Positions 48,770 through 62,007 of a stretch of 64,000 nt of DNA are shown in pieces. The translations under genes and the position numbers were made by a program. The notes below the pieces were generated by a model. The model searched no databases and was not told where the DNA came from. It worked only from the letters and a program-made list of their open reading frames with translations. Source of the stretch: Minisyncoccia bacterium. Its GTDB lineage: Bacteria > Patescibacteriota > Minisyncoccia > Phycocordibacterales > UBA918. The stretch covers positions 41,493 to 105,492 of the forward strand of contig JBGSYZ010000007.1 of NCBI GenBank assembly GCA_041750655.1. Direction: 5' to 3'. Positions within the stretch are counted from its first letter, which is position 1; each line of letters starts with the position of its first letter.

Positions 48770-49162
48770 TTATTTCTTTTTCTGTGAACACTTTGTGCAA
48801 CGACAGGGTTGGCAGTGATCTAGCCAATACTCTTGGCCGTAATCATAGGTAATTTCCTCACCATTTTTGATATAGTTCAGGGCTCTGATTAGTATCTTTT
48901 CTTCTTCTTCGTCTATTTCGGCTTCACAATTGGGGTCACATGAATGGTTTATATACCGAGAAGTATTTGAGCGATCTTTACCATCGATAATCCAGTCATC
49001 ATCTAAAGTAAACAGGTACTTGCCGCCCCGCCTATCACCTTCAGCAGTGGTAATTCTCTCTCCAGTGTATTCGATAACCACGGTGTCTGGTTTAATATCT
49101 TCGTGTGCAAACAATCCTAAACCAGCCTTTGAGCGTTTCACTTTTACTTTTGGAAATTTCAT
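48770..49162 (-). CDS. SET-domain protein (putative protein-lysine methyltransferase); track ORF extends to 49192
   Basis: GLGLFA...EYTGE...NTSRYINHSCDPNC...GEEITYDYG plus post-SET Cys cluster (CQPCRCTKC). Confidence 0.7.
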   Translation of the reverse strand: MKFPKVKVKRSKAGLGLFAHEDIKPDTVVIEYTGERITTAEGDRRGGKYLFTLDDDWIIDGKDRSNTSRYINHSCDPNCEAEIDEEEEKILIRALNYIKNGEEITYDYGQEYWLDHCQPCRCTKCSQKKK

Positions 49163-49220
49163 AACGATTATTTTTACCAGGATACATAGCATTTTACAAA
49201 TGTGATGTGGGATAACAAAA

Positions 49221-49951: not shown

Positions 49952-50467
49952 AAATAATATTGTTAATTATAAATTTTATCTTTTAATACCACCCATCATG
50001 CAGTATTGGAAAATCCAAACTCAATCAAGTGTACTATAAAAATGATGACGTTGGGTAAACACTTAAGTTACATAAAATTTGTACTCTTGTGTAAAGCTAT
50101 TGTTAAATAAAATTATTGTATTGCAACTACACTGTTCGAGTTTTTATACTATCTAAAATCAGCCTTTACGCATGACTTTTACACAGACTTATTCACTCGT
50201 TATACACAGCTATACGATTATATGGCTAGCTATATAAACCAATTAAGACTCTCTACTTACATAGCCTTGTGTAGATAAAGTCAAGGCAAAATTGACAGTA
50301 GTTTTTTGTAGGAGTACCGTCAATATACAGACCACGATTGATGGGCGTGGTAGCTAAAAAAAGGGGATTACCACTTAACTCGGTCGGCCTGGTCTTAGGT
50401 CGCCTTTTTGGCGTTTAGTTTATTAGGGGTATTTATCAAATAATACTTATTTAACATTTAACAAATT

Positions 50468-52036
50468 ATGACGAGTTCAATTAATTACACAAAAATCATC
50501 ATGAGCGTGGGCATGATTGCCTTCGTCGCTGCTCTGGTGGTTGGAGCGACCGGTGCGTTCTTTAGTGACTCCGAAACTTCAACTGGTAACGTGTTTACCG
50601 CTGGAGCGATTAATCTCACTGTAGATAGTGAACAGCATTACAACAATGCAGTTTGTAATGACAATATTTGGGTACTAACAGGTCCTGCTGAGAATCCACA
50701 ATATCCAATCCCGGGCACACCTTGTTCAGGAACGTGGGCAGCTACTGATTTAGGCGCACAAACATTCTTCAATTTCACTGACGTGAAGCCTGGTGATGAA
50801 GGTGAGAACACTATCTCACTACATGTAGACAGCAACGATGCTTACGCTTGTGTGGATGTGACTCTCACTAAAAACGATGACGTCAGTACAGTATCCCCAG
50901 AGTTAGATGCTGGTGACACTCCAAATACCGGTAGTCTGTTTGACGGTGAGCTAGCACAGAATATGACTTTCTTTGCGTGGGCTGACAATGGTAAGGATAT
51001 TACTGGCGCTACAGTTGGTATAGAAGGTGACAATATTTGGCAAGCTGGTGAAGTGCCTTTATTCTCAAACGTTTCTGGTCCTGCTAGCGATGTGCTAGAT
51101 GGTGAAAGCTACACTCTTGCTGACAGCAGCACTGGTGCTTTGCCGGGTGGTGTAACAAGCTACATTGGACTAGCCTGGTGTGCGGGAACAATCGACGCTT
51201 CTGTACCGGGAACCATTACTTGTGACGGTGGCACTATGGGTAACATTGCTCAAACTGACTCTATGGAAGCCACTATTGCTTTCCGAATTGAACAAGCTCG
51301 AAATAACGAGAACTTTGAGTGTGGAGATATTCTGGGTGCTAATACTGATGTGGCAGTTAACACCAACGAAGTGTTTTCTCAAACTGATCGTGCGGCTGCA
51401 GCAGCCGCTGGAAATTGGTTCTTCTACAATGACACCAATGACACAATCATGACAGTTGATGAATTCAGTGGTACAGCCGGCCTAAACCACATGGACACAA
51501 TTGGTGGTTCAGTCGGTGCATATATGAAGCTTGGTACAGAGACAAATCCTCGTTATAACATTGCAACCTATCAGTTTGGTTCAATACCACTTGCTTCGAT
51601 TGGTACATTGAAATACCGAGTGTACGACGCAACTAGTGACGGCGATCAACCATTTATGAATATTGATGTAGACTTTGCGACTACTTCGATTTCTGGATAT
51701 CAAAATCGTCTTATCTACGTACCAGGTGCCTCAACAAATCCGGCACTAGCGGTGAGCACGTGGACTGACATTGATACATTGAGTGGTATGTGGGGATGGT
51801 CTGGTTATGCAAAAGGACCAGATAAAATTGCAACCACTTTAGACGACAATAGTTGGCCAGATGGTAATACGAATGAATACCGTACTTGGGGCGACATAGT
51901 AGCGTCATTCCCTAGTGCAACTATTTTCCCTAGTGGATTCTTGGGTGTTCGCGTAGGCGAGCCAGGACCTGCAGCAGCAGAGGGTTATATAGATTGGATA
52001 GAGTTTGACGGTGTCAAATACGACTTCCAAAACTAG
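50468..52036 (+). CDS. TasA/camelysin-like secreted protein with SipW-cognate-type signal peptide (paralogue 1)
   Basis: N-terminal TM helix then GAFFSDSETSTGNVFTAGAINLTVD and FFNFTDVKPGDEGENTISLHV (resembles the TasA/CalY N-terminal signature). Confidence 0.6.
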   Translation: MTSSINYTKIIMSVGMIAFVAALVVGATGAFFSDSETSTGNVFTAGAINLTVDSEQHYNNAVCNDNIWVLTGPAENPQYPIPGTPCSGTWAATDLGAQTFFNFTDVKPGDEGENTISLHVDSNDAYACVDVTLTKNDDVSTVSPELDAGDTPNTGSLFDGELAQNMTFFAWADNGKDITGATVGIEGDNIWQAGEVPLFSNVSGPASDVLDGESYTLADSSTGALPGGVTSYIGLAWCAGTIDASVPGTITCDGGTMGNIAQTDSMEATIAFRIEQARNNENFECGDILGANTDVAVNTNEVFSQTDRAAAAAAGNWFFYNDTNDTIMTVDEFSGTAGLNHMDTIGGSVGAYMKLGTETNPRYNIATYQFGSIPLASIGTLKYRVYDATSDGDQPFMNIDVDFATTSISGYQNRLIYVPGASTNPALAVSTWTDIDTLSGMWGWSGYAKGPDKIATTLDDNSWPDGNTNEYRTWGDIVASFPSATIFPSGFLGVRVGEPGPAAAEGYIDWIEFDGVKYDFQN

Positions 52037-52130: not shown

Positions 52131-53771
52131 ATGCAGCGCATTATTTTAAGTCTTATGCTTATCGTGGGAGTGGCTGGGGCACTCACTTACGGAGCGACTA
52201 ACGCCTTCTTTAGCGACACTGAGAGTTCAGTCGGTAACACATTTGCCGCTGGAGCGATTGACCTCAAAGTCGATAACGAAAGTTACTACAACGGTGTTCT
52301 CAATGCGTCTACTACGTGGGAGCAAACAGATTTAACAATCGAAAAATTTTTTGATTTTCTTGATTTGAAACCCACCGACTATGGTGAAGATACTATCTCG
52401 CTTCACGTAGCTACCAACGACGCGTATCTGTGTGCCAATGTGACGCTCACGAGTAATGATGACAATGGTATCAATGAACCAGAATCTGAAGTCGATCAAA
52501 CTGATGGTCCGGGTAATGGCGAACTCGCTGACCTCGTAAATTTCCTCTGGTGGGCTGACGATGGCGATAATGTGCTTGAGGAGGATGAGACAGTGATCAC
52601 TCAAGGTAATCTTGGCCAACTCGGTGTCGGTAATTCCTACCCACTGGCACTGGCTGATAGTGATGAAAATATTTGGACTGGAGAGGGTGGCCCTGTTCCC
52701 GGCAACGAAACCCTTTATATCGGCAAGGCGTGGTGCTTTGGTGATATTGCTCCCGCCCCGCTCGCACAAGATGATGAAAATGATGCTATGTCACCAGCCG
52801 GTGATAATAACAACAATGCTACTGCGGGTGAACCAGAAGACGGTGGTATCACCTGTGACGGCACACAGTTGGGCAACGAAAGTCAGACCGACTCACTGAC
52901 AGCGGACGTTTCTTTCTTCGCTGTACAAGCGCGACACAATGATGGTTTCCAGTGTGATTTTCCTCAGGGTCCGCGCACTACTTTGACTCTCGTAAAGCAG
53001 GTACTTAATGGTGAAGCTACTGTCGCTGATTGGACTCTTTCAGCCGCTGGCCCAACTCCACTGACTGGTATTTCTGGCACTGTTGATGTAACCGGTGTGT
53101 CAGTAACTCCCGGCACGTACGACCTTTCAGAATTAGGTATTGACGGTGAGTATTTAGCTTCCAACTGGTCATGTACTGGTGGTAATCAAACCGATTTTGA
53201 CACTATTGAAATTAGTGAGGGTGACAATGTGGAGTGTCGTATTTCCAACTACTTAGTATGTGATCCATCTCAGGCTTACGCTGATCATGTGGTGACCTCT
53301 AGTCAGGCGTTACGAAAGAATGGTACTGCAGTTCTGCCAGAGCGTTCTAATGCTAGCTCAAGTCTTGGTGCTCCAGAAAGTAGTGGCTTGCCAAGTGACC
53401 CAGCGGTAGCGGCCGGCACCTTCTTTAGTCTTGGGTTTGGCGGCTCTATAGTGGTGGAATTCTTGAACAACTACATAGTGGATGGACCTGGCCCTGACCT
53501 ACAAGTGTGGGAAGTAACTGGTGGAGTATATCCGGACGAGTTGATTCAGCTTGACGCAAGTAAAGATGGAGTGACTTGGTTCCCAATTGGCACTGGTCTA
53601 ACTCGTGACGCGCAGACTGACTTAGCACTGTCCGGACTGTCATGGGCGCGTTATATTCGACTAACCGATATATCTAATCCGGGCGATTTCGCAGATGCTA
53701 CTGCTGATGGCTACGACCTCGATGCCTTCAGCGCGCTCAACTGTGCTGATAGAACCCTTATTCCAGACTAG
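52131..53771 (+). CDS. TasA/camelysin-like secreted protein (paralogue 2) with C-terminal prealbumin-fold-like domain
   Basis: NAFFSDTESSVGNTFAAGAIDLKVD, FFDFLDLKPTDYGEDTISLHV; later TLVKQVLNG...GTYDLSE...GY...WSC (Cna-B/prealbumin-like pattern). Confidence 0.6.
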   Translation: MQRIILSLMLIVGVAGALTYGATNAFFSDTESSVGNTFAAGAIDLKVDNESYYNGVLNASTTWEQTDLTIEKFFDFLDLKPTDYGEDTISLHVATNDAYLCANVTLTSNDDNGINEPESEVDQTDGPGNGELADLVNFLWWADDGDNVLEEDETVITQGNLGQLGVGNSYPLALADSDENIWTGEGGPVPGNETLYIGKAWCFGDIAPAPLAQDDENDAMSPAGDNNNNATAGEPEDGGITCDGTQLGNESQTDSLTADVSFFAVQARHNDGFQCDFPQGPRTTLTLVKQVLNGEATVADWTLSAAGPTPLTGISGTVDVTGVSVTPGTYDLSELGIDGEYLASNWSCTGGNQTDFDTIEISEGDNVECRISNYLVCDPSQAYADHVVTSSQALRKNGTAVLPERSNASSSLGAPESSGLPSDPAVAAGTFFSLGFGGSIVVEFLNNYIVDGPGPDLQVWEVTGGVYPDELIQLDASKDGVTWFPIGTGLTRDAQTDLALSGLSWARYIRLTDISNPGDFADATADGYDLDAFSALNCADRTLIPD

Positions 53772-53808: not shown

Positions 53809-54741
53809 ATGTCTAAATACCAACGTTCACAAATAAAAATCGTAATTCTGGCAGTTTTTGTGCTGTTGGTTGGTGTATTAGTGGTGCGTGGAGAAACAGT
53901 TGGTTCAACATTTGCGACTGGCTCAGGAACTGGTGGTCTGGAGTTACAGATAGACAGCAGGACTTACTACAATGGTGTTTTGCAACCGAAATTGTCTTGG
54001 GGATTGAAAAACTTAAAACCATGGAGTGATCGTTTCTTCAAATTTGAAGATGTAAAACCAGGGGACACCGGTACGACCACCATCAGTATTCACATTAAGA
54101 AAAACCCGGCCTGGGTGTGTTTAGATTTTCAAAATCTAAAAGACAAAGAGAACGGTGAAAATGAACCAGAATCATATGAAGATGGTAATGACGGAGGCGA
54201 GCTCTCAAAAGAGCTTGAATTCTTTGCGTGGCGTGATGATGGCGACAATATCTTTGAAGTTGGAGAAAAACCCCTCTTTGGAACCAGTAGCCAATCAGCT
54301 AAAGAGGTTTTAAAAGGGAAATCGTATGCTATTGCTGATAGTACACATGGTCCGGCTCAAGCATCTAATCAAACCAAATACGTGGGAATCAATTGGTGTG
54401 CCGGAGATTTGTCAGTCAATGTCGCGACTGCTGAAATTACGTGTGATGCGGAAGCGATGGGCAATGAAGCCCAAACTGATTCAATGACACTTGATGTTTC
54501 ACTGCGGGCGGTCGCATCTAAACAACAGTCAAAGTTTAAGTGTGTGATGGATGACGAAGGTGAACATCATGGTGGACCAAAAGGTGATCATGATGACGAT
54601 GATGAAGACGATAATCACAACGATGACGATGATGACACTTCATGGCACCACGGTGGGTCAAAAGATAATGCTTGGAATAAGACAAAAAATTACTGCAAGA
54701 ACGCGTGGCAGAAAGTAAAAAATTATAAAAGACATTCATGA
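53809..54741 (+). CDS. TasA/camelysin-like secreted protein (paralogue 3, divergent N-terminus, His/Asp-rich tail)
   Basis: FFKFEDVKPGDTGTTTISIHI and overall collinearity with paralogues 1-2; C-terminal HHGGPKGDHDDDDEDDNHNDDDDD. Confidence 0.5.
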   Translation: MSKYQRSQIKIVILAVFVLLVGVLVVRGETVGSTFATGSGTGGLELQIDSRTYYNGVLQPKLSWGLKNLKPWSDRFFKFEDVKPGDTGTTTISIHIKKNPAWVCLDFQNLKDKENGENEPESYEDGNDGGELSKELEFFAWRDDGDNIFEVGEKPLFGTSSQSAKEVLKGKSYAIADSTHGPAQASNQTKYVGINWCAGDLSVNVATAEITCDAEAMGNEAQTDSMTLDVSLRAVASKQQSKFKCVMDDEGEHHGGPKGDHDDDDEDDNHNDDDDDTSWHHGGSKDNAWNKTKNYCKNAWQKVKNYKRHS

Positions 54742-56291
54742 AGTATATTTTTTACATTATAAATAGTATTTTTGTTCTGCTGATGCTAGCGGTAGCCGGT
54801 TTGTTCTTGGTACCTCTTTTACCAATTGAGCACAATTTGGAACTCAAGATTGTGGAGTCGGGCTCGATGGAGCCAGCGATTATGACCGGGTCACTGGTGG
54901 CTATTTGGCCAGCGACCCACTATGGAGTAGGTGATATCATTACGTTTAAAAGTAAAAGTTCTGAGGTACCTACTACTCACCGTATAGCCAATATTTATGA
55001 AGAGAATGGTCAGACCTGGTTTATTACTAAAGGTGACGCCAACGAAGAAGCTGACTCACAAGCCACAGCAGCTACAGATGTTATCGGTTCAGTCAAAGTA
55101 GCTGTTCCGTACGCTGGCTTTATATTAGATTTTGCTCGTCAGCCGATTGGATTCGCGTTTCTCATTTTATTACCAGCCTTGATGCTTATCTTGAGTGAGG
55201 TAGGGAAAATCTGGTCAGAGATTAAAAAACGAAAAAATACCGAAGCAGCTAGTTCTGCTGAAGTTGAAACAAAGTCAGTTGTCGCTGAAAAAGTAGAACC
55301 AAAACTCGCTTCAAATTCGACTGCTCGTCCAATGATGGATATTTCAACTCCAACTCGTTTTTATGTTTTACCGACATTAGATTTGCGGGGACTGACTCCC
55401 TATCCACGAAGTCAATCGCTCGCGCTTAACCAAAAACCGCCTTCTCGTTGGTTTATTTTGCCTGGCGTTTTCTTGTTTTGTGCCACTGTTATTGGTTCAG
55501 GTTTTCTTGGCTCGACCGTTTCGTATTTTAACGACATTGAGCGCAGCGTTGGTAATGGGCTTCGAGCCATCTCGCTTGATTTTACTGTATTGCCTGACGG
55601 AGAACAGTATAGTTTTGAGAACGGTGAATTACTGGCTGATGATGATGGTGCCTTAGTAACAGTGGTTACTCCAGAGCCCGGCAGTGTGTCCATGCGCTAC
55701 GATGTTTCAGTGGAAGTTACTGGTGGTAACGCACTGTTTTGTGATGCAATTAGTGCTTCGTCCGTTAGTCCGGTTTTGTACAGTGGTTCGCTCTCGGCCC
55801 TTAATGCTAATGATATTTTGTTTGATACTCCGTGGCCTCTCGCACTATCGTTACCTGATAGCACCGGTTTCTTTAATGGTGAAATGTGCTCCCTCGATAT
55901 AATCTTCACTGCTTGGCATTACGATGTTGCGACCGATCAAGGCTACTTTGATGAAGAGCGGGCGCCACTTTCGTTTGAACTAATTTTACCGAACGTCGCT
56001 CCACAACAGTTGCTGATTACTTCGTTTGATGTTGCCACTGACACACCGACTAGCACTCCCGAAACAAAAGCCAGCTCTACCATAGCTCTACCACCAGTAT
56101 TGGATGAAGTAGACAACGCATCACGCACCGAGAATAAACTTGCAGGTGTCGAAACTGAAGCTGTGTTAGAGCCAGAAGTTACACAATCTGATGAAGAGAC
56201 TGAAAAAACTCCTGTTACAGAGAGTGAGGTGGAAAGTACCGACGATGTACACGTGGTTGAAGATGATGTGCAACCAGAAATAGTTGAATAA
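54738..56291 (+). CDS. SipW/Sec11-type (archaeal/ER-type) signal peptidase I fused to a C-terminal TasA-like domain
   Basis: ESGSMEPAIMTGSLV (catalytic Ser box), TTHRIANI (His box), ITKGDANEEAD; then a second TM segment followed by STVSYFNDIERSVGNGLRAISLDFTV (SipW-cognate-like motif) and an acidic tail. Confidence 0.6.
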   Translation: MKYIFYIINSIFVLLMLAVAGLFLVPLLPIEHNLELKIVESGSMEPAIMTGSLVAIWPATHYGVGDIITFKSKSSEVPTTHRIANIYEENGQTWFITKGDANEEADSQATAATDVIGSVKVAVPYAGFILDFARQPIGFAFLILLPALMLILSEVGKIWSEIKKRKNTEAASSAEVETKSVVAEKVEPKLASNSTARPMMDISTPTRFYVLPTLDLRGLTPYPRSQSLALNQKPPSRWFILPGVFLFCATVIGSGFLGSTVSYFNDIERSVGNGLRAISLDFTVLPDGEQYSFENGELLADDDGALVTVVTPEPGSVSMRYDVSVEVTGGNALFCDAISASSVSPVLYSGSLSALNANDILFDTPWPLALSLPDSTGFFNGEMCSLDIIFTAWHYDVATDQGYFDEERAPLSFELILPNVAPQQLLITSFDVATDTPTSTPETKASSTIALPPVLDEVDNASRTENKLAGVETEAVLEPEVTQSDEETEKTPVTESEVESTDDVHVVEDDVQPEIVE

Positions 56292-56319
56292 ATTTTAATA
56301 AAGAGAGAATAGTAAATTA

Positions 56320-56350
56320 AGTCACGGATACCAGTCCGTGACTTTTGATA
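56320..56350 (+). terminator. Rho-independent terminator after the fibre/peptidase module
   Basis: AGTCACGGA-TACCAG-TCCGTGACT followed by TTTGAT. Confidence 0.6.
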
Positions 56351-56394
56351 TGAGCAGTGTTCTTATTGACATAGGGTAGGGGGTACCCTATAAT

Positions 56395-56655
56395 ATGCCT
56401 ATGCAAGAAGATAGAAAAAAAATAATCGACCACATAAGTCGTCTGGAAGGACAGCTTGCTTCAGTAAAATCAGAGCTTTCGCTTGATAATCCAGATTGTG
56501 AAAAAGCTAGTCAAACCCTCCAATCAGCTGCTCGCTCTTTTGCTGGTCTTCGTGAACAGTTTGTTGAAACATTTTTACTAACCCATTTTATAAACAGTAA
56601 AAAAATTAAAAACCAGAGATTATTTAATCAGCTTATTGCCTTAATAAAAAGTTAA
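56395..56655 (+). CDS. CsoR/RcnR/CstR-family metal/persulfide-sensing repressor
   Basis: LSRLEGQLASVKSEL...PDCEK...ARSFAGLREQFVETFL matches DUF156/CsoR helices with a conserved Cys. Confidence 0.6.
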   Translation: MPMQEDRKKIIDHISRLEGQLASVKSELSLDNPDCEKASQTLQSAARSFAGLREQFVETFLLTHFINSKKIKNQRLFNQLIALIKS

Positions 56656-56658
56656 CTT

Positions 56659-57180
56659 ATGAAACATGTTGATGTACATACCTTTAAAGAGGTGGTTGAA
56701 GCCGAGCGTGATAACGAGACTGTTGATTTTATTAATGTGTGCACGCCAGCTGAATATAAAGAAAAACATATTCCAGGCGTAAGAAACGTACCACTTGATG
56801 AGATTGAAAAGAGAGCTGGTGAGTTTGCTAACAAGAAAACACTCTATATTCACTGCCGCAGTGGTAACCGTGGCCGTCAGGCGATGGAAAAATTAGCTAA
56901 GCTTGGCGTAACGGCCGAACTAGTTAATGTTGAAGGAGGAATTATAGCTTGGGATCAAGCGGGATTTGTAACCGACTCACTGACAAATAGAATTCCCATT
57001 ATGCGACAAGTTTTAATCGCAGCTGGTGGTTTGATACTACTCGGGTATGTTCTGTCAGTATCTGTGTTCGATCAATTTATCTTTCTTAGTGTTTTTGTGG
57101 GGGCAGGTTTAATGTTTGCTGGTATAAGTGGTTGGTGTGGAATGTCGTACGTACTCGCTAAAATGCCCTGGAATAAATAA
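56659..57180 (+). CDS. Rhodanese-domain protein with C-terminal DUF2892-like membrane segment (YgaP-like)
   Basis: Active-site loop YIHCRSGNRGRQA; C-terminal two hydrophobic helices. Confidence 0.6.
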   Translation: MKHVDVHTFKEVVEAERDNETVDFINVCTPAEYKEKHIPGVRNVPLDEIEKRAGEFANKKTLYIHCRSGNRGRQAMEKLAKLGVTAELVNVEGGIIAWDQAGFVTDSLTNRIPIMRQVLIAAGGLILLGYVLSVSVFDQFIFLSVFVGAGLMFAGISGWCGMSYVLAKMPWNK

Positions 57181-57202
57181 TTAATAAATTAAAAAATAAA
57201 TT

Positions 57203-58012
57203 ATGCGCTATCTCATTGGACTACTAGGGCTCATTGCTCTTTCAATTGGAGTTTGGAACTTTGGTGGTGAAGAATTAGAAGAAAAACAGCAAAATCAATT
57301 TAAGGTTGAGTCTCAAAAAAATGAAGATTTAGTTGACGAACTGGAAAACTATCAGGTGACTGCAGCTGATTTTGTGAATGCTGATGAGCTCATATCGAAT
57401 GAAGTGACAAATGAACTGTCACAAACTGAAATCGAAGGACTTAAGTATATGCGGGAAGAGGAAAAACTGGCTAGAGACGTTTACTTGGCTTTGTACGAAT
57501 ACTGGAACATTCCTATCTTTAACAATATTGCCGGAAGCGAATCCACCCACATGTCAGCCGTGCTTACATTATTGGAAAAATACAATTTAACCGATCCAGC
57601 TAGTGATAAAAGAGGGGAATTTACAAACAACGACCTTCAAGCTCTCTACAATCAACTAGTAGCTGAAGGTAAAAAAACAAAAGCAGCCGCTTTCACTGTT
57701 GGGGCTAAAATTGAAGATTTAGATATCCGCGATTTGGAAGAAAATATTAATGCGACAGATAATCAGGATATTCGCATTGTCTATGAATCTTTACAACGCG
57801 GATCAAGAAATCATCTCCGGGCCTTCAATCGCCAGTTGATAAACGAAACTGGTACTAACTATGAACCAGAGTTCATGTCAGTCGAAGAGTTTAACGCTCT
57901 TATCTCTACTGGGGTTGAGAAAGGTAATGTACAAGGCCAAGGCAATCAAGGGAGTTTTGAAGGAGGTCAAAATAGAAACTCTGGACAGGGGCAAGGTACT
58001 GGTAGCAGATAG
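57203..58012 (+). CDS. DUF2202 (ferritin-like) secreted protein
   Basis: Signal peptide; YMREEEKLARDVYLALYEYW...NIAGSESTHMSAVLTLLEKY matches the DUF2202 pattern. Confidence 0.5.
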   Translation: MRYLIGLLGLIALSIGVWNFGGEELEEKQQNQFKVESQKNEDLVDELENYQVTAADFVNADELISNEVTNELSQTEIEGLKYMREEEKLARDVYLALYEYWNIPIFNNIAGSESTHMSAVLTLLEKYNLTDPASDKRGEFTNNDLQALYNQLVAEGKKTKAAAFTVGAKIEDLDIRDLEENINATDNQDIRIVYESLQRGSRNHLRAFNRQLINETGTNYEPEFMSVEEFNALISTGVEKGNVQGQGNQGSFEGGQNRNSGQGQGTGSR

Positions 58013-58034
58013 GGTAGACATTAATCTTTTATCT

Positions 58035-58961
58035 ATGACAGACAAAATTAACTATCAAAAATATTTAGCGTATAAGCCAGAAGTGCAGGGTTTCTTCGAT
58101 GGACGAACCAATACTATCAGTTACGTAGTAGCCAATCCGGAAACCAAAAAGTGCGCCATTATCGATAGCGTGATGGATTACGAACCACACAGTGCCACCA
58201 TTTTCTTTGAAAATGCTGATGCAATTGTGAAGTATGTAAAAAATAAGGGTTATGAAGTGGAGTGGATTTTGGAAACCCATGTTCATGCTGACCACCTTTC
58301 GGCCGCACCGTACTTAAAAGAAAAATTAGGCGGTACTATGGCCATCGGTAAGTACATAGTCGATGTGCAAAATATCTTCGGCAAAGTCTTCAATGAAGGA
58401 ACTGAGTTTGAGCGCGATGGTAGTCAGTTTGATCGGCTGTGGAATGATGGTGACACGTTTACTCTAGGTAATATTACAGCGAGTGTCATCCACACTCCCG
58501 GCCATACTCCTGCTGATATGGTCTATGTCATTGGCGATGCTGTCTTTGCTGGGGATACTATGTTTATGCCAGACTTTGGGACAGCTCGATGTGATTTCCC
58601 CGGCGGAAGCGCTGAAACGCTATATGAATCCACTCAAAAAATATTTGCCCTACCTGAAGAGATGAGGATGTTCATGTGCCACGACTACTTACCAGAAGGA
58701 CGAACTGAATATGTTTGGGAGACAACAGTTGGTGAGCAGAAGAAAAATAATATTCACCTCAAAGAGGGAACAGACCCTGAACGATTCAAGTCTATGCGCG
58801 ATGAACGCGACGCGAAGCTCGGTATGCCTAAACTCATCATTCCATCAATTCAGGTAAATATGCGGGCCGGCAATATACCTAAAGAAAAAGAGACAGGAAA
58901 CATGATGCTAAAGATGCCAGTTAATAGTGTGTTTTCTAAGCAGCCAACAAATAAGTCTTAG
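58035..58961 (+). CDS. MBL-fold hydrolase, persulfide dioxygenase (ETHE1/Blh)-like
   Basis: ATG 58035 (MTDKINYQKY) in frame with track ORF 57861; ETHVHADHLSAAPYLKEKLGG metal-binding motif. Confidence 0.55.
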   Translation: MTDKINYQKYLAYKPEVQGFFDGRTNTISYVVANPETKKCAIIDSVMDYEPHSATIFFENADAIVKYVKNKGYEVEWILETHVHADHLSAAPYLKEKLGGTMAIGKYIVDVQNIFGKVFNEGTEFERDGSQFDRLWNDGDTFTLGNITASVIHTPGHTPADMVYVIGDAVFAGDTMFMPDFGTARCDFPGGSAETLYESTQKIFALPEEMRMFMCHDYLPEGRTEYVWETTVGEQKKNNIHLKEGTDPERFKSMRDERDAKLGMPKLIIPSIQVNMRAGNIPKEKETGNMMLKMPVNSVFSKQPTNKS

Positions 58962-61614: not shown

Positions 61615-62007
61615 TGGTGGAGATGGTGGAAATCGAATCCACGTCCGAGAATGGTCACACATATGATTCTTCAATGCATAGCTACACTTTTAAGTTTTAA
61701 TATGATGATAGGAAGTGTAGCCAAAGCTCACCATATCTAGTTCGTACATCTCGGTTTCCTAGCCGAACAGTTTAGGATTCCGCAGTCTCATTTTTATTCC
61801 ACCCCACGCCACTTATGAGACTTCAGTGGGTGAAGCGTCGCTCCGGCCGGCGTTATTTACGCGAAAGCGGGTGCGAATCCAAACGCGTTAGCGTACGGAC
61901 TTGGTACAGATTTGTTTGCATCTATACGTGGTTGCCTTTTAACGAATGGCGACCAATTTCGACATTGCACATATGTATGGGTCAAACCGTCGATGCCTGT
62001 CATCCCC
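61615..62007 (-). ncRNA. ssrA: tmRNA (transfer-messenger RNA), 393 nt, one-piece
   Basis: 5' GGGGAUGACAGGCAUCGACGG... and 3' ...GGACGUGGAUUCGAUUUCCACCAUCUCCACCA (T-arm, acceptor, CCA); G3-U70 wobble in the acceptor stem; tag ORF GCA AAC ... TAA (61857..61919) after UAGAU encodes ANKSVPSPYANAFGFAPAFA; terminator ACCACCC...GGGTGGT plus U-run downstream; smpB upstream. Confidence 0.8.

Follow-up and report, generated by a model that had tools for sequence, protein, structure and literature searches.

A 64,000-nucleotide stretch of DNA from a Minisyncoccia bacterium (contig JBGSYZ010000007.1, forward strand; termed here the window) carries a 517-residue open reading frame (ORF) in which a SipW-like signal peptidase is continued by a second module, referred to here as X, with a transmembrane (TM) helix, a candidate SipW-type cleavage site and a β-sandwich of its own. 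Comparison with relatives in which the two modules are encoded apart indicates that this ORF is a fusion of sipW and X, two genes that normally stand side by side with coupled translation. It stands at the end of an operon that also encodes three TasA-like proteins (p1, p2 and p3), and, as judged by alignment, X keeps the SipW-type cleavage and strand motif of p1 and p2 on a different body. The arrangement can be explained, with a probability that we put slightly above even, by an enzyme-substrate fusion that makes X, a strand-donating accessory of the TapA, CapP or AbpB kind, which would act as an initiator or cap; here we infer the cleavage of X, the donation of its strand and its initiator role.

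The SipW-X Fusion Is Genuine and Conserved

The features of the fusion gene, all on the forward strand, are as follows.

54738..56291, +, fusion gene (sipW-X), 517 amino acids, ATG to TAA, zero internal stops
54738..55232, +, SipW-like signal peptidase I module, residues 1-165, comprising TM1, catalytic β-domain and TM2
54864-54866, +, catalytic Ser43, within SGSMEP
54978-54980, +, catalytic His81, within PTTHR
55035-55037, +, Asp100, within KGDANEExD
55053-55055, +, Asp106, within KGDANEExD
55233..55448, +, cytoplasmic linker, residues 166-237, 13 K/R versus 8 D/E, isoelectric point (pI) 9.9, predicted disordered
55323-55373, +, conserved X n-region motif RPMMDISTPTRFYVLPT, residues 196-212, from alignment to free-standing X
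55449..55508, +, TM3, residues 238-257, h-region of an internal signal peptide or signal anchor, N-in/C-out, from hydropathy
55509..55589, +, SipW-type c-region and N-terminal strand, residues 258-284, GSTVS↓YFNDIERSVGNGLRAISLDFTV (here and below, the arrow marks an experimental or predicted cut)
55581..55985, +, X β-sandwich, residues 282-416, with a conserved Cys335/Cys384 pair
55986..56291, +, acidic Pro/Thr/Ser-rich disordered tail, residues 417-517, 101 residues, 25 D/E versus 4 K/R, pI 4.05

The first-pass annotation of this DNA, made from the sequence alone, had described a 517-residue ORF that continues past the peptidase domain and overlaps the preceding gene at its start. Both descriptions are borne out. 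The frame is uninterrupted, the peptidase module is recognized with confidence (see below), and three TM helices are found by hydropathy and in the AlphaFold2 (AF2) model at approximately residues 2-27, 136-160 (extending to 172 in AF2) and 237-257. The initiating ATG overlaps the TGA of the upstream p3 gene as ATGA at 54738-54741.

A homologue search with the whole protein retrieved 211 relatives, and the conservation figures given below for the fused family refer to the best 120 of these. The same 120 proteins are mostly 440-590 residues long, with a query coverage of at least 75-80%. Fused relatives derive from Kaiser-, Nomura-, Zambryski- and Paceibacteria and from other Patescibacteria, and where they are named in the databases the label is “signal peptidase I” only. 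When each half was represented by a local hidden Markov model (HMM), both modules were detected in one chain in 149 of the retrieved proteins, with the same junction frame; these come from independent Patescibacteria assemblies and multiple data sources. The SipW-X fusion is therefore genuine and conserved.

The charge pattern of the protein places a basic linker inside and both acidic domains outside, and the flanks of TM3 obey the positive-inside rule. The topology that we propose would have TM1 running from inside to outside, the catalytic domain outside, TM2 returning to the inside, a basic cytoplasmic linker of ∼75 residues that represents the former n-region of X, TM3 again running outward, and X as an ectodomain.

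The N-terminal Half Is a SipW-like Signal Peptidase

The N-terminal half is a member of the archaeal/endoplasmic reticulum (ER)-type signal peptidase I family (TIGR02228, MEROPS S26B). Residues 9-155 match TIGR02228 with 110.3 bits (E = 8.1e-32), the cut-off being 51.85. The active site is of the Ser-His rather than the Ser-Lys type, with conserved Asp in addition, and Ser43, His81, Asp100 and Asp106 are each conserved in 96-99% of the 120 homologues, the exceptions being gaps only, with zero substitutions. The score against the Bacillus SipW equivalog model NF046067 is 114.2 bits, under its cut-off of 190, so that the module is SipW-like and not a Bacillus equivalog. It nevertheless matches free-standing SipW proteins (188 and 203 residues) from one end to the other.

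In the AF2 model, the peptidase half consists of TM1 (residues 2-27), a β-domain (residues 35-123) and TM2 (residues 136-172). When the full-length model was compared with the Protein Data Bank (PDB) by Foldseek, the best match was human SEC11C (7p2q_A; E = 4.7e-6, target TM-score 0.60), followed by LexA C-terminal domains and by SipA (4n31), third-best with E = 4.2e-4. Because of the TIGR02228 score, the unsubstituted Ser, His and Asp residues and the SEC11-like predicted fold, the peptidase half is apparently an active enzyme.

A SipW-type Cleavage and Strand Motif Follows the Third TM Helix

TM3 is modeled by AF2 as a helix of residues 237-256 with a predicted local distance difference test score (pLDDT) of ∼90. 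It is followed by the segment that the first-pass annotation had singled out as a SipW-cognate-like cleavage region (peptide STVSYFNDIERSVGNGLRAISLDFTV, residues 259-284). The predicted scissile bond, Ser262↓Tyr263, lies between nucleotides 55523 and 55524 in the motif T-V-S↓Y-F-N-D-I-E-R-S-V-G-N, and cutting there would release 255 residues. The geometry is standard, with an h-region of 20 residues and a c-region of 5 residues. Like p1 and p2, the site has an aromatic P1′ residue, and Pro is absent.

The resemblance of this region to a SipW-type site is beyond chance, as two results show. In all six reading frames of the 64-kb window, the motif occurs in p1, p2 and the fusion only, besides one stop-ridden spurious match, and profile comparison of X with p1-p3 by hhalign gave E = 2.3e-5 over 31 N-terminal columns, comprising the signal and strand only. 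The hhalign register places the T-x-A/S of X where TasA is cut (TWA↓AFND); the corresponding TapA site is TSA↓AFHDIET. Among the fused homologues (n = 120), position −3 is Thr in 94% and Ser in 6%, and position −1 is Ser in 82% and Ala in 18%. In free-standing X proteins, position −3 is Thr in 93%, position −1 is Ser, Ala or Gly in 100%, position +1 is Tyr in 88% and position +2 is Phe in 87%. The −3/−1 residues precede the strand and are explained chiefly by recognition by the peptidase; their pattern in fused and free forms indicates that the site is under selection. Cleavage at Ser262↓Tyr263 is thus probable on the evidence of the motif.

Members of the family reach the cut-off of TIGR04088, the model for SipW-dependent-type signal peptides. 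A free-standing X protein (P0209) scores 19.9 bits and a SipW fusion (P0107) scores 19.1 bits over residues 243-272, the latter being one chain that passes both the peptidase model and TIGR04088. A further protein, P0171, scores 18.2 bits, under the cut-off of 19, and is named by JGI as a SipW-dependent-type signal peptide protein.

The strand that follows the cut is disordered in the AF2 monomer. Under strict register and globular-coverage filters, X strands scored 52.5 against the p strands of their own genome and 50.7 against those of other genomes (28/42 loci; permutation p = 0.004, with phylogeny uncontrolled). This co-variation signal is a small effect that fits strand donation by X and is weak support for it.

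The Body of X Is Distinct from TasA and TapA

Beyond the strand, AF2 predicts an all-β domain with a pLDDT of 87.7 and a predicted template modeling score (pTM) of 0.78. A domain of ∼250 residues and an acidic tail had been annotated at this position; the acidic tail stands, and the size of the domain is reduced to a folded part of ∼135-150 residues within the 255 residues after the predicted cut. Cys335 and Cys384 are invariant in the alignment of the C-terminal domain (A2). The pLDDT is low at the start of the tail, and in other family members the tail is replaced or supplemented by LTD domains.

A word-indexed search with the C-terminal domain alone retrieved two fragments only; an exhaustive profile search with A2 reached 1255 proteins at E ≤ 1e-3 in 1.84 billion representatives. 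Neither Pfam nor NCBIfam has a model for the X family, and a PDB sequence search with the X profile and with the p1-p3 profile gave nothing meaningful. With respect to TasA, the fusion has no match to the body model PF12389, and hhalign against TasA recovers the strand only (E = 0.088). HMM matches of p1-p3 on X proteins likewise end at approximately profile position 57, and TasA and TapA are absent from the top 50 Foldseek matches. By its body, the C-terminal half is not a member of the TasA/camelysin family (PF12389) or of the TapA/YqxM family (TIGR04087; 6HQC, 6QAY and 8AIF).

The proposal that the second module is a TasA-like substrate thus needs dividing. A fusion of the peptidase-substrate type, retention of the −3/−1 residues and a strand shared with p1-p3 are all supported; in the globular domain, no relationship to p1-p3, TasA or TapA is detectable. 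Alignment of the C-terminal domain to the three paralogues, which had been suggested as a check, accordingly succeeds over the 31 N-terminal columns and fails over the globular domain.

A Conserved Cytoplasmic Motif Precedes TM3

The linker between the two modules has AF2 pLDDT values of 48-59 and contains a stretch, RPMMDISTPTRF, that is the counterpart of the N-terminal region of free-standing X (MSDMFVPRR or MDDVLVPRR). In free-standing X proteins (P0144-P0230), the motif takes the form Y-[VLA]-R-x-R-x-[MT]-D-[DE]-[VI]-[FL]-V-P; in the clade of the window it is R-x-M-M-D-I-x-x-P, the window itself having RPMMDISTP. Conservation in the 120 fused homologues is 83% for Met199, 80% for Ile202 and 93% for Pro205. 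The motif is retained in every architecture, whether free, fused or strand-only (see below), and is unstructured in AF2. In most free X proteins the motif Met is internal, with ∼15 residues before it, and conservation of this Met is for that reason not start-codon conservation.

sipW and X Are Normally Adjacent Genes

Of the 1255 matches to the X profile, 69 are free-standing proteins starting with Met. In these, an N-terminal region of 40-100 residues leads into one TM helix, and the X domain comes after the motif T-x-S-Y-F-x-D-x-E-x-S-x-x-N. One locus (L006) has the operon order of the window with sipW (188 residues) and X (312 residues) as separate genes joined by an ATGA overlap, and a second locus (L005) resembles it, its SipW of 203 residues preceding an X of 310 residues. 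The window protein aligns to SipW over residues 1-165 and to free X from approximately residue 196 onward.

Neighborhoods were surveyed in 80 species-representative loci recovered with the SipW alignment. A sipW gene followed by a separate full-domain X gene was found in at least 36, a fusion in 7, and a SipW with another long tail in a further 7. X occurs once per operon and always beside sipW. Because the two are separate adjacent genes in L006, L005 and 36/80 loci, the pairing of sipW with X is supported by Rosetta-stone evidence. In a rough neighbor-joining tree without support values, fused forms are interspersed with unfused ones at four or more points, which suggests repeated fusion of SipW and X. 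Many of the metagenome-assembled genomes at loci L007-L086 are titled “uncultured Candidatus Saccharibacteria” or “Gammaproteobacteria” in TPA assemblies, yet their SipW and X proteins group with Paceibacteria-type sequences, and these record titles are probably unreliable. Genuine outgroups are L065 (Bacillus caseinilyticus) and L085 (Methanocellales).

A reduced form of the fusion was also identified. Sixteen SipW proteins carry the cytoplasmic motif, a TM helix and a strand, GGTIA↓YFSDIERSIGNIFRAG, without the X sandwich, and end in a disordered acidic/Pro-Thr tail or in an LTD domain. Examples of these strand-only fusions are P0100, P0107, P0108, P0113-P0119 and P0122, and loci L035, L078 and L081.

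The Operon Encodes Three TasA-like Paralogues

The remaining features of the operon and its downstream boundary are as follows.

50468..52036, +, p1, TasA-like subunit, 522 residues, SipW-type signal and strand GATGA↓FFSDSETSTGN
52131..53771, +, p2, TasA-like subunit, 546 residues, SipW-type signal, TIGR04088 21.9 bits
53809..54741, +, p3, shorter paralogue, 310 residues, p1/p2-like body and His/Asp-rich tail, from an alignment of 12 paralogues from 4 loci
56319..56344, no strand assigned, terminator-like G+C-rich hairpin of 10 bp that closes the operon, from a promoter/terminator scan
56366-56394, σ70-type promoter of the next gene, perfect TTGACA-17-TATAAT

The p1 protein scores 23.3 bits on TIGR04088 (cut-off 19) and 23.9 bits on PF12389 over residues 9-55, and hhalign aligns it with TasA over the signal and strand (E = 3.6e-5). 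It has an extra C-terminal domain of ∼230 residues. In p2, a SpaA_2 prealbumin-like domain (PF19403; 1.9e-22) occupies residues 283-371 and is followed by a further C-terminal domain. Synteny of the four-gene cassette, in which the fusion follows three TasA-like genes, is seen in three diverged genomes.

No TIGR04088 match was found in p3, and the T-x-A↓F-F-S-D-x-E segment is missing from p3-type genes in 4/4 loci. Orthologues of p3 lie at L001:7024-8004, L003:5760-6992 and L004:5971-6999. It may be speculated that the p3 type is an uncleaved, membrane-anchored subunit or a strand-less end subunit that complements strand-only X.

Proposed Mechanism and Alternative Interpretations

The following scheme would account for the enzyme-substrate fusion proposed above. 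The peptidase module would cut Ser262↓Tyr263 in its own chain (in cis) or in a neighboring one, and so free a 255-residue X whose new N-terminal segment, YFNDIERSVGNGLRA, would become the donor strand for a TasA-like subunit. X might then nucleate or cap the fiber, as TapA does for TasA. The fusion would set a 1:1 ratio of enzyme to initiator, and the initiator would be made where the N termini of the subunits are released. A minor accessory is preferred to a fourth subunit because the body is unrelated, the stoichiometry with the enzyme is 1:1 and 16 strand-only fusions exist.

Several points weigh against this interpretation. The comparison with TapA is one of analogy, because body homology was undetected (hhalign of X against TapA finds none) and the PDB matches of the X domain are weak and immunoglobulin (Ig)-like, among them the chaperone-usher pilins AggA, CooA, CfaB, PsaA, Saf and Caf1 at TM-scores of ∼0.4 and E > 1e-3. 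The window segment itself scores 13.6 bits on TIGR04088 (E = 0.056), under the cut-off of 19. The full-length AF2 model leaves the cut site outside the active site (pLDDT ∼52, pTM 0.48); given that the region is undocked, the model speaks neither for nor against cleavage in cis. A conserved motif would not be expected in a disposable signal peptide, and the one that precedes TM3 may mean retention or regulated cleavage. Finally, it is from similarity to TasA at the N terminus only that p1-p3 are taken to form donor-strand fibers.

Some of these points would be accommodated if TM3 were permanent, so that X stayed tied to SipW as an uncleaved anchor or terminator, its membrane-proximal strand inserted into the groove of the terminal subunit while the peptidase served as an usher-like membrane base. 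Such an arrangement agrees with the persistence of the cytoplasmic motif and linker in every form, fused or free, which would be strange for a signal peptide destined to be discarded. It also agrees with the occurrence of fusions at several positions in the SipW tree, the lack of docking of the cut site in AF2 and the co-localization of TapA with the membrane (PMC10151520). Against this, the small −3/−1 residues and a cleavable P1′ show exactly the conservation seen in p1, p2 and TasA, and without cleavage the residues before the strand would have no obvious role; nor would a free-standing X need to be adjacent to SipW for mere anchoring. We therefore regard permanent anchoring as rather unlikely, if worth keeping in mind.

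The first-pass annotation had envisaged that self-processing releases a fourth fiber subunit. Such an X would polymerize alongside p1-p3, with which it shares an operon and translational coupling and, in the case of p1 and p2, the signal and strand motif. At the profile level, however, the globular domain is unrelated to p1-p3, with 31 columns aligning, and it is altogether missing in some lineages; in addition, X is tied by the fusion to a 1:1 ratio with the enzyme and is present once per operon, always beside sipW. A fourth structural subunit is consequently improbable. It is also highly improbable that internal initiation at Met198/Met199 yields a separate X preprotein and leaves the fusion largely nominal. 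The MMDI sequence does align to the N-terminal region of free X, and genes here have no recognizable Shine-Dalgarno sequence, such that an internal start is compatible with the sequence; a Shine-Dalgarno sequence was looked for before Met198/Met199, and since every gene of the region is without one, the result is uninformative. However, most free X proteins have the motif Met at an internal position, zero promoter or ribosome-binding signals were seen, and the in-frame arrangement is kept in the 149 homologues.

A sequencing or assembly artefact, namely a missed stop or frameshift between sipW and the next gene, was a concern raised with the first description of the ORF, and relatives with adjacent separate genes and an ATGA overlap lend it some initial plausibility. 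That reading is rejected because the junction frame is kept in 149 fused homologues, which were drawn from numerous independent assemblies and different data sources; the linker, moreover, holds a conserved in-frame motif. An artefact is scarcely credible on these grounds.

Comparison with Known Systems

The closest parallel to the proposed accessory is TapA (YqxM) of the Bacillus subtilis tapA-sipW-tasA operon. TapA is cleaved by SipW, and its unstructured N terminus complements TasA by donor-strand insertion; its complete Ig-type body stays out of the filament, and its C-terminal half is dispensable (PMC10151520). The mature N terminus, Ala44, is experimentally confirmed, and residues 44-57 suffice for biofilm formation in vivo, so that TapA can do without most of its length (PMC10151520). 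TapA is also about as scarce as SipW, and tapA overlaps sipW (PMC10151520). The TapA sequence at the cut site was verified here against PDB 6qay. Like X, TapA has a comparable site (TSA↓AFHDIET versus TVS↓YFNDIER), an unstructured strand, a small β-sandwich body and a disordered charged C terminus. The two differ in that tapA lies upstream of sipW and is separate, whereas X lies downstream and is fused; X is further distinguished by a long n-region motif that is cytoplasmic and conserved, and by a disulfide pair that is likewise conserved. The strand-only SipW fusions parallel the sufficiency of TapA residues 44-57 (PMC10151520).

CapP (BC1280) of Bacillus cereus (PMC13082335) and AbpB of Pyrobaculum (PMC9245690) are non-TasA accessories of TasA-like filaments for which a role as initiator or regulator of polymerization has been proposed. 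By their descriptions, both resemble X in having a signal peptide and a β-rich N-terminal domain, followed either by a disordered C-terminal region for anchoring or by distal domains. Unlike X, both are separate from any peptidase, and in the case of AbpB a dedicated peptidase is also missing from the neighborhood.

With respect to the enzyme, the N-terminal half resembles SipW, S26B and SEC11 peptidases in family score, Ser-His-Asp residues, flanking TM helices and an operon with TIGR04088-type substrates. The fusion differs from SipW and SEC11 in its C-terminal extension of 350 residues, which provides a third TM helix and a substrate-type module. SipA of Streptococcus pyogenes (4n31; the SipA/LepA type of Gram-positive pilus polymerization) is likewise a signal-peptidase fold dedicated to a surface fiber, but it lacks catalytic residues and acts as a chaperone, whereas the catalytic residues of the fusion are fully conserved. 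Initiator and terminator subunits of chaperone-usher systems, which operate through donor-strand exchange, share with X an N-terminal extension strand before an Ig-like body. Those systems employ a chaperone and an usher; the system described here is Sec- and SipW-dependent.

Other Features of the Window

The operon is preceded by a gene-free leader of 516 nucleotides (49952-50467) that has no Rfam match; within it, a terminator-like hairpin occupies 50385-50402, ∼65 nucleotides before the start of p1. A small SET-domain protein (PF00856; 7.5e-27) is encoded just upstream of the operon at 48770-49192 on the reverse strand. Downstream, positions 56366-58961 encode a CsoR/RcnR-type repressor (PF02583), a rhodanese with a YgaP-like TM, a DUF2202 protein and a metallo-β-lactamase-fold protein, the last two of which overlap by ∼150 nucleotides as called. 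This cluster looks sulfide- or persulfide-responsive. A tmRNA gene (RF00023; 111 bits) is located at 61615-62007 on the reverse strand. The G+C content is raised at 60-61 kb (0.54) and 62-63 kb (0.51) relative to ∼0.42, and these segments contain ORFs without a Pfam match; the region from 60 to 63 kb may be an integrated element.

Significance

Nothing linking SipW, TasA or camelysin with the candidate phyla radiation (CPR), Patescibacteria or Parcubacteria was found in full-text literature searches. The logic of SipW, TasA and TapA is a known one; what is new here is that accessory and peptidase form one protein, and that they do so in a phylum from which no such system had been described. 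For Bacillus biofilms, a natural fusion of this kind provides independent evolutionary support for two proposals about TapA, namely that it acts in physical association with SipW at a similarly low copy number and that its essential part is the short strand directly behind the cleavage site. The fusions that consist of strand and tail only are particularly relevant to the latter. The presence of enzyme and substrate in one polypeptide also offers a compact system for studies of SipW-type specificity. With regard to annotation, hundreds of proteins labeled “signal peptidase I” contain a second, distinct module.

Patescibacteria/CPR bacteria depend on surface contact with their hosts, and a widespread four-gene operon for a TasA-like fiber is flagged here for the biology of these organisms. 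A bolder interpretation, which we consider distinctly unlikely, is that of a membrane-embedded assembly machine. Here, X would remain tethered, or would be cut only on a cytoplasmic cue read by the motif of the Y-x-R-x-R-x-M-D-D-V-F-V-P type, and SipW would be processing enzyme, nucleation site and anchor at once. If true, a single polypeptide would be the functional equivalent, in Patescibacteria, of the chaperone-usher platform and might serve in host attachment.

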